A stretch of DNA of 38,979 nt from Kayfunavirus LM33P1, in sequence record OZ035813.1; one strand, 5' to 3'. Below are positions 24,365-25,962 of this stretch, in pieces. How positions within the stretch are numbered: the first letter of the stretch is position 1; every line of letters begins with the position of its first letter. The notes beneath the pieces are model-generated. The model did not search any database. It worked only from the letters and a program-made list of their open reading frames with translations, and was not told the origin of the DNA. The translations under genes and the position numbers were made by a program.

Positions 24365-24387
24365 ACTAAACTATCACTATAGGGAGA
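24365..24387 (+). promoter_or_regulatory. phage RNAP promoter (phi10-like, full consensus)
   Basis: ACTAAACTATCACTATAGGGAGA upstream of the capsid gene; +1 at 24382. Confidence 0.85.
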
Positions 24388-24490: not shown

Positions 24491-25540
24491 ATGGCAAACG
24501 TTCCGGGTCAGAAAGTTGGTACAGACCAAGGTAAAGGCAACTCTGGTTCCGACGCTCTGGCGTTGTTCCTGAAGGTATTTGCTGGCGAAGTCCTGACCGC
24601 ATTCACTCGCCGCTCTGTAACTGCTGACAAGCATATTGTCCGTACCATTCAGAACGGTAAGTCTGCTCAGTTCCCGGTCATGGGTCGCACCTCTGGTGTG
24701 TATCTGGCTCCGGGTGAGAGACTGTCCGATAAGCGTAAAGGTATCAAACATACCGAGAAAGTGATTACCATTGATGGTCTGCTGACTGCCGATGTGATGA
24801 TTTTCGACATTGAAGACGCGATGAACCACTATGACGTGGCTGGTGAGTATTCCAACCAGTTGGGTGAAGCTCTGGCTATCGCTGCCGATGGTGCGGTACT
24901 GGCTGAGATGGCTATTCTGTGTAACCTACCGGCTGCATCTGATGAAAACATCGCTGGTCTTGGCAAAGCGTCTGTGCTGGAAGTTGGTACTAAAGCAGAC
25001 CTGAACACTCCGGCTAAGCTGGGTGAAGCAATCATCGGTCAACTGACCATTGCTCGTGCGAAGCTGACATCCAACTACGTTCCTGCTGGCGACCGTTACT
25101 TCTACACCACGCCGGACAACTACTCTGCAATCCTCGCGGCTCTGATGCCGAACGCTGCTAACTATGCTGCGCTGATTGACCCAGAGACTGGTAACATCCG
25201 TAACGTAATGGGCTTCGTGGTTGTTGAAGTTCCACACTTGACTCAGGGTGGTGCTGGGGAAACTCGTGGTGCCGATGGTATCACTATTGCGACTGGTCAG
25301 AAGCACGCCTTCCCAGCTACTGCTACTGGTGATGTTAAAGTTGCTCTGGACAACGTTGTGGGCCTGTTCTCTCACCGTTCTGCTGTAGGTACTGTTAAGC
25401 TGCGTGACTTGGCGCTGGAACGTGACCGTGACGTCGATGCTCAGGGCGACCTGATTGTTGGTAAGTACGCTATGGGTCACGGTGGTCTGCGTCCAGAAGC
25501 AGCAGGCGCACTGGTTTTCACAGCGGCGTCAGCGGGTTAA
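24491..25540 (+). CDS. major capsid protein (gp10A)
   Basis: 349 aa; near-identity to T7 gp10A in many blocks (KHTEKVITIDGLLTADV, AILAALMPNAANYAALIDPE, RSAVGTVKLRDLALER, KYAMGHGGLRPEAAGA). Confidence 0.95.
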   Translation: MANVPGQKVGTDQGKGNSGSDALALFLKVFAGEVLTAFTRRSVTADKHIVRTIQNGKSAQFPVMGRTSGVYLAPGERLSDKRKGIKHTEKVITIDGLLTADVMIFDIEDAMNHYDVAGEYSNQLGEALAIAADGAVLAEMAILCNLPAASDENIAGLGKASVLEVGTKADLNTPAKLGEAIIGQLTIARAKLTSNYVPAGDRYFYTTPDNYSAILAALMPNAANYAALIDPETGNIRNVMGFVVVEVPHLTQGGAGETRGADGITIATGQKHAFPATATGDVKVALDNVVGLFSHRSAVGTVKLRDLALERDRDVDAQGDLIVGKYAMGHGGLRPEAAGALVFTAASAG

Positions 25541-25803
25541 CGACCTTTAAGGCCCTCTCTACAGAGGGTCCTACCTTAGAGACGTATAGTTCTACGGTGG
25601 GAACCAGCCTGAAGGTTGACTTCCCTGAGCTTTCAGATGTGACCGATTGGTCGCTGCTTGAGGTGACTACGCCTGATGGTGTTAGCTACTCCCGTAGAAC
25701 CAACAGTCTCTACTTCAAGGCCACCTCTGGCGTGGAAGGTCTGGTGATTGTTGGGTATGACGGGACGCCTGTGCGTTCCTTCAACGTATCTTTCACAAAC
25801 TAA
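24491..25803 (+). CDS. minor capsid protein gp10B, predicted product of a -1 programmed frameshift near the end of gp10A
   Basis: slippery heptamer G GTT TTC at 25513-25519, identical to the T7 site; the -1 frame stays open from 25519 to 25803. Confidence 0.5.
25513..25519 (+). promoter_or_regulatory. -1 ribosomal frameshift slippery site (G GTT TTC)
   Basis: heptamer in the gp10A reading frame 21 nt before its stop; identical to the T7 gene 10 frameshift site. Confidence 0.55.
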
Positions 25804-25806
25804 TTG

Positions 25807-25846
25807 AAACCCCTTGGGTGCCTTCGGGTGCTTGAGGGGTTTTTTT
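25807..25846 (+). terminator. T-phi-like terminator after the capsid gene
   Basis: 13-bp GC-rich stem CCCCTTGGGTGCC/GGGTGCTTGAGGGG with TTCG tetraloop followed by T7 run; resembles T7 Tphi. Confidence 0.85.
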
Positions 25847-25861
25847 GCTTAAGGAGGGACT

Positions 25862-25951
25862 ATGGTCCTTATTTACACAGGGTTAGCACTATTCGTCTTA
25901 TTCTGGGCGTACCTGCTGTCCAGCTCACCGTCTAGCGCCTATGACCGTTAA
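25862..25951 (+). CDS. small hydrophobic peptide
   Basis: 29-aa ORF with strong SD AAGGAGGG immediately after the capsid terminator. Confidence 0.3.
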   Translation: MVLIYTGLALFVLFWAYLLSSSPSSAYDR

Positions 25952-25962
25952 GGAGTAAACCT

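Follow-up and report, generated by a model that had tools for sequence, protein, structure and literature searches.

Gene 10 of Escherichia phage LM33_P1 is predicted to encode a second capsid protein bearing an Ig-like domain through a T7-style -1 frameshift

Capsid protein extensions in T7-like phages

Gene 10 of phage T7 yields two capsid proteins, 10A and the longer 10B, through a -1 frameshift with an efficiency of about 10%. The T7 extension comprises 58 codons, is charged or helical in character, belongs to PHROG 12582 ('head protein') and contains no Pfam domain. The gp10B proteins of T3 and phiYeO3-12 also arise by -1 frameshifting, which in these phages appends an Ig-like extension of ~86-90 aa to some of the capsid subunits. 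A long gp10B extension is thus not unusual among T7-like phages, as the T3 extension of ~86 aa carries a Pfam Big_2 domain (E 4.7e-10). Frameshift-appended Ig-like domains have been described on phage structural proteins (Fraser et al. 2006, cited in PMC5009743).

Three further systems bear directly on the locus studied here. The 10B protein of Citrobacter phage CR8 is recorded as the joined product of a -1 frameshift, with 'tttt' marked as the site, and a note in the same record adds 'matches in mass spectrometry analysis', although these matches may concern only peptides shared with 10A. The 10B protein of Kvp1, with a TTTTCA site, has been confirmed by mass spectrometry (PMC2579914). For K1F, the type Kayfunavirus, g10b has been regarded as the product of a -1 frameshift, and phage carrying it fused to GFP were viable and fluorescent (PMC6277420).

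The slip site and the -1 frame of LM33_P1

We analyzed a window of 38,979 nt, the whole stretch of DNA under study, which comes from the Kayfunavirus Escherichia phage LM33_P1. The capsid gene and the elements that define the proposed frameshift are as follows.

24370-24387, + strand: phage-RNA-polymerase promoter-like sequence ACTATCACTATAGGGAGA, the phi10 equivalent, 5' of gene 10
24491-25540, + strand: gene 10A, major capsid protein, 349 aa, 36.3 kDa (ORF list, Pfam and annotation)
25513-25519, + strand: slippery heptamer G GTT TTC, encoding Val342-Phe343 in the 0 frame (read from the sequence)
25513-25803, + strand: -1 frame extension ORF, 96 codons plus TAA (translation, dN/dS and homologues)
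25806-25850, + strand: T-phi-like intrinsic terminator, whose 17-bp stem and T run span 25806-25843 (terminator scan)

The gene 10A product matches the Pfam Gp10A-like family (E 5e-105) and is labelled major head protein in NC_031937. The promoter-like sequence upstream is positioned as are phi10 of T7 and phi10 of K11, and its motif, when up to three mismatches are allowed, occurs seven times in the window, in all cases on the + strand, against a chance expectation of 0.02.

A preliminary description of this DNA had reported a T7-type G GTT TTC at 25513-25519, in frame with 10A; the codons CTG GTT TTC confirm this reading. Six sense codons separate the heptamer from the 10A stop (TAA, 25538-25540). 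While GGTTTTC is found twice on the + strand of the window (and not at all on the - strand), only the copy at 25513-25519 is both in the reading frame of a long ORF and at its end. The heptamer is identical to the G GUU UUC of T7 and occupies the same position, 5-8 codons ahead of the 10A stop, and it is conserved across genera; T3, in contrast, slips at the lysyl site C CCA AAG.

After a -1 shift the frame was said to stay open to 25803 and to add about 94 residues, and it does so: it contains 96 sense codons, 94 of them past Val-Phe, and ends at TAA 25801-25803. The predicted gp10B would comprise 437 aa (45.9 kDa), of which residues 344-437 are specific to it, as compared to 349 aa and 36.3 kDa for gp10A, a computed net gain of 88 aa and ~9.6 kDa. 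Its predicted -1-frame peptides are ALSTEGPTLETYSSTVGTSLK, VDFPELSDVTDWSLLEVTTPDGVSYSR and ATSGVEGLVIVGYDGTPVR, and the predicted peptide at the junction of gp10A and the extension, spanning V-F-H, is YAMGHGGLRPEAAGALVFHSGVSGLTTFK. The extension was correctly described as longer than that of T7, with 96 codons in LM33_P1 versus 58 in T7 and 50 in K1F by the same measure. The further claim that the ORF ends directly before a T-phi-like terminator also holds, as the stem starts two bases past the TAA. This terminator aligns with T-phi of T7 and K1F, and its 5' arm AAACCCCTTGGG is invariant across lineages; in both T7 and LM33_P1 the -1 ORF ends just 5' of T-phi and the terminator arm AACCCCTTGGG is conserved.

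Purifying selection acts on the -1 frame. Past the 10A stop its dN/dS is 0.12-0.19, as compared to 1.1-4.0 in the remaining two frames, which contain 5 and 9 stops over the same region, and differences in the -1 frame fall mostly at third positions (36 of 58, 29 of 41 and 36 of 59). The stops in the other frames, together with the third-position bias and low dN/dS of the -1 frame, indicate that its openness is more than chance. When the domain alone is considered, in comparisons reaching K11 and CR8, dN/dS is 0.13-0.24, and it is 0.05-0.2 among very close Kayfunavirus relatives (pS 0.06-0.14). All lineages retain an ORF that is open from the heptamer onward, with extensions of 93, 95, 96, 98 or 105 aa, even though their linker sequences are unrelated. 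A tblastn search with the extension found homologues in 454 phage records, with at least 80% of the query covered in 446 of them, and residues 17-96 match PHROG 7473 (E 7e-37). A gene on the minus strand, such as the 'XRE regulator' called in EcpYZU01, was considered and rejected; LM33_P1 has no minus-strand ORF of at least 30 aa in this region, and the substitutions fit the -1 frame of the + strand.

The capsid gene of 04_vB_Eclo_IJM (L021) is broken up, probably through sequencing errors, and this phage was discarded. To relate the site to the extension, we surveyed 79 related capsid genes. GTT TTC is present in 51 of the 79, and a T7-type or Ig-type -1 extension follows it in 48 of these 51. 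None of the 28 relatives that lack GTT TTC, and that encode Val-Phe as GTC, GTA or GTG followed by TTC or have other residues, possesses either type of extension (Fisher p 2e-18, in statistics that ignore phylogeny).

Taken together, the heptamer, selection on the -1 frame, the co-occurrence of site and extension, the comparison of start codons given below and the CR8 homologue all support the earlier assignment of a conserved, T7-type programmed -1 site. We consider it very probable that gene 10 encodes both gp10A and a predicted gp10B, the latter through a T7-style -1 slip that appends an Ig-like domain. The majority of ribosomes would stop at TAA 25538-25540 to give gp10A, while a minority would slip one base backward on G GUU UUC (25513-25519), with tRNA-Phe re-pairing from UUC to UUU and tRNA-Val from GUU to GGU, and would then read the -1 frame as far as TAA 25801-25803 to give gp10B. 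Such a product would be a familiar device of T7-like phages, left unannotated in this genome, and would not surprise a T7 specialist.

The linker and the predicted Ig-like domain

The 94 residues specific to gp10B are predicted to form a flexible linker and an Ig-like beta-sandwich.

25520-25581, + strand: extension linker, residues about 3-23, predicted to be disordered (AlphaFold and dN/dS)
25582-25800, + strand: predicted Ig-like beta-sandwich, extension residues 24-96 (gp10B residues 365-437), about 7.9 kDa

AlphaFold models the extension as a ~22-residue linker followed by a ~73-residue, seven-strand Ig-like beta-sandwich, with a pLDDT of about 90 for the sandwich and below 50 for extension residues 1-19. 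The linker is weakly constrained between lineages (dN/dS 0.5-1.2), and its length changes solely by multiples of three. By this model, the C-terminal domain of the extension is predicted to adopt an Ig-like fold; it is not a member of a recognized Ig-like family (Pfam Big_2, I-set or FN3). A Pfam search of the extension at E values up to 1 returned no domain except a chance match to Peptidase_M14, and the only similarities that a profile search returned, with Big_2, Big_1, invasin and BACON proteins, were weak and multi-repeat. The T3 domain matches Big_2, whereas the LM33_P1 domain has neither a Pfam match nor profile similarity to it, and hhalign of the two extensions indicates no homology (probability 0.1%). 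The solved structures retrieved by sequence search, carboxypeptidase A and Rab1, were dismissed as chance matches (E 0.004 or worse). No paper found in our literature search describes the K11-type extension as Ig-like.

Unlike the T7 tail, with which it does not align, the LM33_P1 extension has 96 codons, belongs to PHROG 7473 and has a predicted Ig-like fold. Homologous extensions (44-50% identity, CR8 being at 50%) are found in 10B of CR8 and in the 'minor capsid protein' of Klebsiella phages K11/KP32. CR8 and these phages belong to other genera (Caroctavirus and Przondovirus) and share with LM33_P1 the heptamer, the -1 frame and the place 5' of T-phi, while their linkers are unrelated to that of LM33_P1. 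K11, KP32, CR8 and EV136_1 are organized like LM33_P1, their extensions following gene 10A in the -1 frame. The extension is therefore a linker plus Ig-like cassette common to K11/KP32/CR8-type phages and non-homologous to the T7 tail, not a lengthened form of that tail. Sequence comparison suggests that T7 and LM33_P1 have the -1 frameshift mechanism in common, but not the appended module.

Comparison with K1F gene10b defines the boundaries of the cassette. The two phages belong to the same genus, share the terminator and have capsid genes that are near-identical up to the heptamer, yet K1F has a T7-type tail of ~44 codons past the 10A stop where LM33_P1 has the Ig-like cassette. The near-identity persists until GGTTTTCA, the extensions are unrelated, and identity resumes at AACTAATTGAAACCCC. 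The extension is a swappable cassette whose boundaries are the slip site and T-phi.

T7-type capsids expose the C-terminus of gp10, and some of the subunits would therefore display the Ig-like domain on the outer capsid surface. Phage Ig-like domains elsewhere have been proposed as carbohydrate adhesins, and by analogy the LM33_P1 domain is probably an accessory adhesin that binds surface carbohydrate weakly. In the record of LM33_P1, a candidate for phage therapy against E. coli ST131-O25b, the second capsid protein is missing. An Ig-like domain on some capsid subunits is a plausible accessory adhesin, again by analogy, and if it binds host or mucosal glycans, it could alter the in vivo behavior of the therapeutic phage. 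The extension also offers a natural display site for engineering, comparable to that used in K1F g10b::gfp.

Alternative readings and RNA elements

The public annotation of LM33_P1 places a separate gene within the extension region.

25597-25803, + strand: gp36, a 68-aa 'hypothetical protein' with a GTG start (public annotation)

The joined 10B is annotated in none of the eight Kayfunavirus records that we inspected (LM33_P1 and seven others), in which the 3' part figures as a hypothetical gene or as a fragment with a wrong label, the region is miscalled, or it is left unannotated. The 160 database homologues are themselves ORF calls, and the 120 listed are 64-87 aa long, have varying starts and lie on contigs of mostly about 40 kb. 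That the region is a separate small gene, translated from GTG 25597 independently of gene 10, is how RefSeq and most related records present it, and in L016 and ZCEC02 a TAATG stop-start overlap, with its ATG at extension residue 10, could allow reinitiation. We regard independent translation as very unlikely, however, since the Shine-Dalgarno duplex at GTG 25597 is -2.9 kcal/mol, as compared to -7.3 and -8.7 kcal/mol for genes 10 and 11, and a start at this codon (residue 29) would lose predicted strand 1 (residues 24-28). Nor is there a conserved independent start, as start positions vary by lineage and the Shine-Dalgarno matches at them are weak; the sole start in EcpYZU01 is a TTG at residue 33, and LM33_P1 reads ACG where L016 has ATG. 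An independent gene would not need the co-occurrence of GTT TTC with the ORF. In addition, every lineage keeps the frame open as far back as the heptamer, although the linkers are unrelated and differ by indels in multiples of three. We judge gp36 to be an ORF-calling artefact that represents the 3' part of 10B.

The site and ORF could also have been inherited but be effectively silent in LM33_P1, with negligible frameshifting and an extension that has no role. Frameshifting might be negligible because there is no adjacent stimulator; the 75 nt past the heptamer are no more stable than shuffled sequences (z -0.6), and folding reveals no canonical stimulatory structure 5-9 nt past the heptamer. 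T7 10B is dispensable, and a ~160 bp deletion in one relative (L017) removes half of the domain and part of T-phi, from which it follows that the domain is dispensable at least in culture or that the L017 assembly is faulty. Against these observations, purifying selection is apparent even when very close relatives within Kayfunavirus are compared, the heptamer and the CCCC arm of T-phi are intact, and in T7 frameshifting proceeds with no canonical stimulator next to the site (PMC5009743); we accordingly give a silent site a very small chance. It is less probable still, to the point of being barely credible, that the longer product arises from slippage of the phage RNA polymerase, and not of the ribosome, on the run of four T residues. 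The site does contain this short homopolymer, and the CR8 record marks 'tttt' alone, but four T residues fall far below the run lengths known for productive transcriptional slippage. Conservation instead covers the whole heptamer in its frame, with its 5' G or C and its 3' C, a pattern that tandem tRNA re-pairing would predict, and the T7 gene 10 site is classed as ribosomal (PMC5009743).

If LM33_P1 ribosomes slip as proposed, RNA elements farther from the site may contribute.

25551-25571, + strand: small hairpin with GG/CC and CCCUCU/AGAGGG stems and a CUAC loop (minimum-energy fold)

This hairpin, 31 nt past the heptamer, is a candidate RNA element, and the 108 nt from the heptamer onward fold with a z of -2.0; an Rfam search of 25400-25960 returned nothing over noise. 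T-phi with its CCCC tract at 25810-25813 is present 3' of the extension, where its role in frameshifting is putative; the CCCC of T7 T-phi reportedly takes part in gene 10 frameshifting (PMC5009743). We considered long-range pairing between this CCCC arm and a G run, for which T7 has GGGGG at ~+16 and LM33_P1 has GGGTT, and dropped it because it is not conserved, K1F, K11, CR8 and EV136_1 having no counterpart in alignments inspected by eye.

Stimulation of the T7 gene 10 frameshift at a distance is listed as unexplained in the 2016 Atkins review, and three unrelated cassettes of differing lengths between one slip site and one terminator provide a natural experiment on it. A broader proposal, which we advance only tentatively and think doubtful, is that the domain is a distinct Ig-like family, lacking a Pfam model, classed by PHROG as of 'unknown function' and confined essentially to Studiervirinae; that it belongs to a set of three or more non-homologous cassettes, including the T7 tail and Big_2, that recombine between the slip site and T-phi; and that frameshifting is tuned by distant RNA elements, namely the hairpin ~30 nt past the heptamer and the terminator CCCC. 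In K11 (z -4.5), CR8 (z -2.8) and EV136_1 (z -2.7), a comparable hairpin occupies the corresponding position and is significant. In the K11 group, the hairpin at +20 to +62 is strong and backed by covariation, with compensatory changes in two pairs, whereas its LM33_P1 counterpart is weak.

Gene 10 and its predicted slip site

The window holds the whole 38,979-bp genome of Escherichia phage LM33_P1 (Studiervirinae, Kayfunavirus), rotated by 3,376 nt relative to the public record NC_031937 / LT594300. Two features frame the predicted extension:

24491-25540, + strand: gene 10A, 349 aa, 36.3 kDa (Pfam Gp10A-like, E 5e-105)
25806-25843, + strand: T-phi-like terminator, a 17-bp stem plus T run that aligns with the T7 and K1F T-phi

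Gene 10A reads GCA CTG GTT TTC ACA GCG GCG TCA GCG GGT TAA at its 3' end, so that the heptamer G GTT TTC, identical to that of T7, lies at 25513-25519 with GTT TTC as zero-frame codons, as the preliminary description had it. The -1 frame is likewise open to 25803, with 96 sense codons counted from 25513 and a TAA at 25801-25803. Because Val and Phe are decoded ahead of the shift, the predicted gp10B comprises gp10A residues 1-343 plus 94 new residues, the number anticipated, and is computed at 437 aa (45.9 kDa), compared with 349 aa (36.3 kDa) for gp10A. The extension had also been described as longer than that of T7, and on the same measure T7 has 58 codons and K1F 50; for K1F, 44 added triplets are given in the literature (PMC6277420). 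The terminator stem starts two bases past the stop, in keeping with an ORF ending just before T-phi, and every element of the original observation was thus borne out.

A cassette with a predicted Ig-like fold

No alignment exists between the LM33_P1 extension and the tail of either T7 or K1F. Between LM33_P1 and K1F there is near-identity as far as GGTTTTCA, no relatedness through the extension, and identity once more from AACTAATTGAAACCCC (the final codons and T-phi), which makes the extension a cassette lying between slip site and terminator. Homologues were found by tblastn in 454 phage records, about 135 of them at 60% identity or more (Kayfunavirus-like phages of Escherichia, Salmonella and Enterobacter) and about 319 below 60% (~40-50% among the matches listed), the latter mainly from Klebsiella K11/KP32-like Przondovirus and also from Citrobacter CR8 and Pectobacterium phages. 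In several of these records the fragment goes under the name 'minor capsid protein'. For CR8, a joined 10B is annotated as made 'by a -1 internal frameshift' at tttt, together with the remark 'matches in mass spectrometry analysis', which is not traceable to extension peptides.

The extension matches PHROG 7473 (function unknown; E 7e-37) and no Pfam family. In an AlphaFold2 model based on a 41-sequence alignment, extension residues 1-19 are disordered and residues 24-95 form a predicted seven-strand beta-sandwich (pLDDT ~86-93). In a Foldseek comparison with viral models, the PP81 'minor capsid protein' ranked at the top (E 2e-8), and next came Ig, BIG2 and capsid-decoration proteins. When 1.84 billion representative proteins were searched with an HMM, there were only 13 matches at E <=1e-3, six of which are short (49-84 aa), including three phage ORF calls already found; the remote matches looked up are multi-repeat Ig-like proteins or have Ig-like Pfam matches (a Spiroplasma BIG2 protein, an invasin-D3/Big_1 protein, a BACON protein and a cadherin-like protein). 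We therefore take the modelled domain to be a diverged form of the bacterial Ig-like superfold with a restricted lineage distribution.

T3, but not T7, gains an Ig-like extension through -1 frameshifting (PMC5009743). Pfam assigns the T3 extension to Big_2 (E 4.7e-10), and it shares no profile similarity with the LM33_P1 extension. The predicted frameshift mechanism of LM33_P1 belongs with T7 gene 10 and its appended module with the K11/CR8-type 'minor capsid protein'; the general scheme, in which frameshifting places an Ig-like domain on the major capsid protein, is that of T3 gp10B. For LM33_P1, gp10B is a prediction from sequence and its fold a predicted structure. The novelty is modest: the 10B product is unannotated in all eight Kayfunavirus records inspected, that of LM33_P1 included, and a limited literature search found no description of the extension family as Ig-like.

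Among related capsid genes (80 IMG/VR loci, L025-L104) there are at least three non-homologous gp10B cassettes, namely a tail of the T7/K1F type, the Ig-like domain of the K11/LM33 type and a Big_2-like domain. Most extensions of the Big_2-like kind come after a site ..A AAG G.., but L049 combines GGTTTTC with such an extension. L038 and L061 keep GGTTTTC ahead of a short -1 ORF; the T7-type tail of L038 is found in the +1 frame, pointing to an indel or sequencing error. In L017 / L033 (IMGVR_UViG_2974604219, 40,291 bp), a deletion of ~160 bp at locus positions ~1660-1700 spans mid Ig-like domain to the T-phi 3' arm, between short CTGA and TTGA repeats, and the -1 ORF therefore reads through into a small downstream ORF. 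Either growth in culture requires neither the domain nor the terminator, or the contig is misassembled.

Coding constraint and probable coupling to the slip site

LM33_P1 was compared past the 10A stop with three moderately diverged relatives, L016, EcpYZU01 and ZCEC02. In the -1 frame, 36/58, 29/41 and 36/59 differences fall at third positions and dN/dS (Nei-Gojobori) is 0.17, 0.12 and 0.19, while the values for the two remaining frames are 1.1-4.0, with 5 and 9 stops in these frames. The domain part retains a dN/dS of 0.13-0.24 as far as K11, KP32 and CR8, a distance at which synonymous changes approach saturation; constraint on the linker (0.5-1.2) is far weaker. Very close relatives also show purifying selection (dN/dS 0.05-0.2), which contradicts the idea that the extension is a silent relic. 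A minus-strand gene was also considered, as an 'XRE family transcriptional regulator' is called opposite the 10B extension in EcpYZU01 (locus L019, 1618-1851, - strand); LM33_P1 has no counterpart ORF, and the substitution pattern does not fit. This call and the split of the L021 (04_vB_Eclo_IJM) capsid gene into many small ORFs, the latter probably from sequencing errors, look like annotation or assembly problems.

The extension could instead be a stand-alone small gene, and the RefSeq annotation indeed starts a 68-aa 'hypothetical protein' at GTG 25597. The Shine-Dalgarno match of this codon is -2.9 kcal/mol, compared with -7.3 for gene 10 and -8.7 for gene 11. Possible in-frame starts (ATG, GTG or TTG) ahead of the domain differ in residue position from lineage to lineage and have poor Shine-Dalgarno matches, and the only candidate start of EcpYZU01 is a TTG inside the domain. 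All 160 extension homologues in a collection of 5.8 billion proteins are ORF calls; the 120 among the matches listed are 64-87 aa long with varying starts, on contigs mostly of ~40 kb. The frame is open back to the heptamer in every lineage examined, despite linkers unrelated in sequence and varying extension lengths (93, 95, 96, 98 and 105 aa), and all indels are multiples of three. Of 80 IMG/VR capsid-gene relatives fetched, 79 were usable. Val-Phe is encoded by GTT TTC in 51/79, and 48 of these 51 have a T7-type or Ig-type -1 extension, compared with none of the 28 without GTT TTC (Fisher's exact p = 2e-18, shared ancestry ignored). Most of the 28 keep Val-Phe as GTC TTC, GTA TTC or GTG TTC; conservation of the two residues can thus be ascribed to the capsid, but the slippery codons persist only where a -1 extension is available. 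The open frame, the poor and shifting start codons and this co-occurrence contradict a stand-alone gene and argue for translation coupled to the slip site. Transcriptional slippage could yield the same longer product but is unlikely, as the T run is just four long and conservation of the full in-frame heptamer would be left unexplained.

In L016 and ZCEC02, the 10A stop overlaps a -1 frame ATG at extension residue 10 (TAATG, locus ~1526-1530), where LM33_P1 has ACG; reinitiation there could additionally yield a free 87-aa protein.

Candidate RNA elements, possible display and other features

The 2016 review by Atkins et al. places G_GU of T7 gene 10 among X_XXY_YYZ variants and describes a terminator CCCC, >200 nt downstream, as involved in T7 frameshifting in a manner still unexplained (PMC5009743). 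The equivalent LM33_P1 arm, AAACCCCTTGGG, lies ~290 nt from the shift site and is invariant across all lineages aligned. No canonical stimulator was found 5-9 nt past the heptamer. The predicted fold contains one nearby element:

25551-25571, + strand: small hairpin, 31-nt spacer from the heptamer

The region around it is not more stable than shuffles (z -0.6; -2.0 when the 108 nt starting with the heptamer are folded), and the hairpin is a weak candidate RNA element. Strong hairpins occupy the equivalent relative position in K11 (z -4.5), CR8 (-2.8) and EV136_1 (-2.7). The K11-group hairpin, 20-62 nt past the heptamer (1327-1369 in the K11 locus L007, with 15 further loci), has 18 bp that are 98.6% paired over 16 sequences. 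Compensatory changes of both bases (A-U to G-C and C-G to U-A) are seen at two of these pairs and change the amino acids of the linker. The distance of this hairpin from the heptamer is not that of a canonical -1 frameshift stimulator.

The T7 gp10 C-terminus is external, which is the basis of T7 display. A K1F g10b::gfp phage is viable (PMC6277420). By analogy with both, the extension domain may be displayed on the capsid surface, and its likeness to other phage Ig-like domains suggests a possible adhesive role.

Further features of the window are:

25862-25951, + strand: small ORF between T-phi and gene 11, unannotated in NC_031937
2699, 9535, 20546, 23385, 24370, 29153 and 36429, + strand: copies of a promoter-like motif from a search of the window

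The small ORF, preceded by a strong Shine-Dalgarno (TAAGGAGGG), encodes a hydrophobic, membrane-like product of 29 aa (MVLIYTGLALFVLFWAYLLSSSPSSAYDR) that has no match in PHROG; its counterpart is an annotated 30-aa hypothetical protein in phage phi1_146013, and L017 has a diverged copy. The promoter-like motif, ACTATCACTATAGG(G/A)... (phage RNA polymerase), occurs seven times, always on the + strand (chance expectation 0.02), and the copy at 24370-24387, just upstream of gene 10, is the phi10 equivalent.
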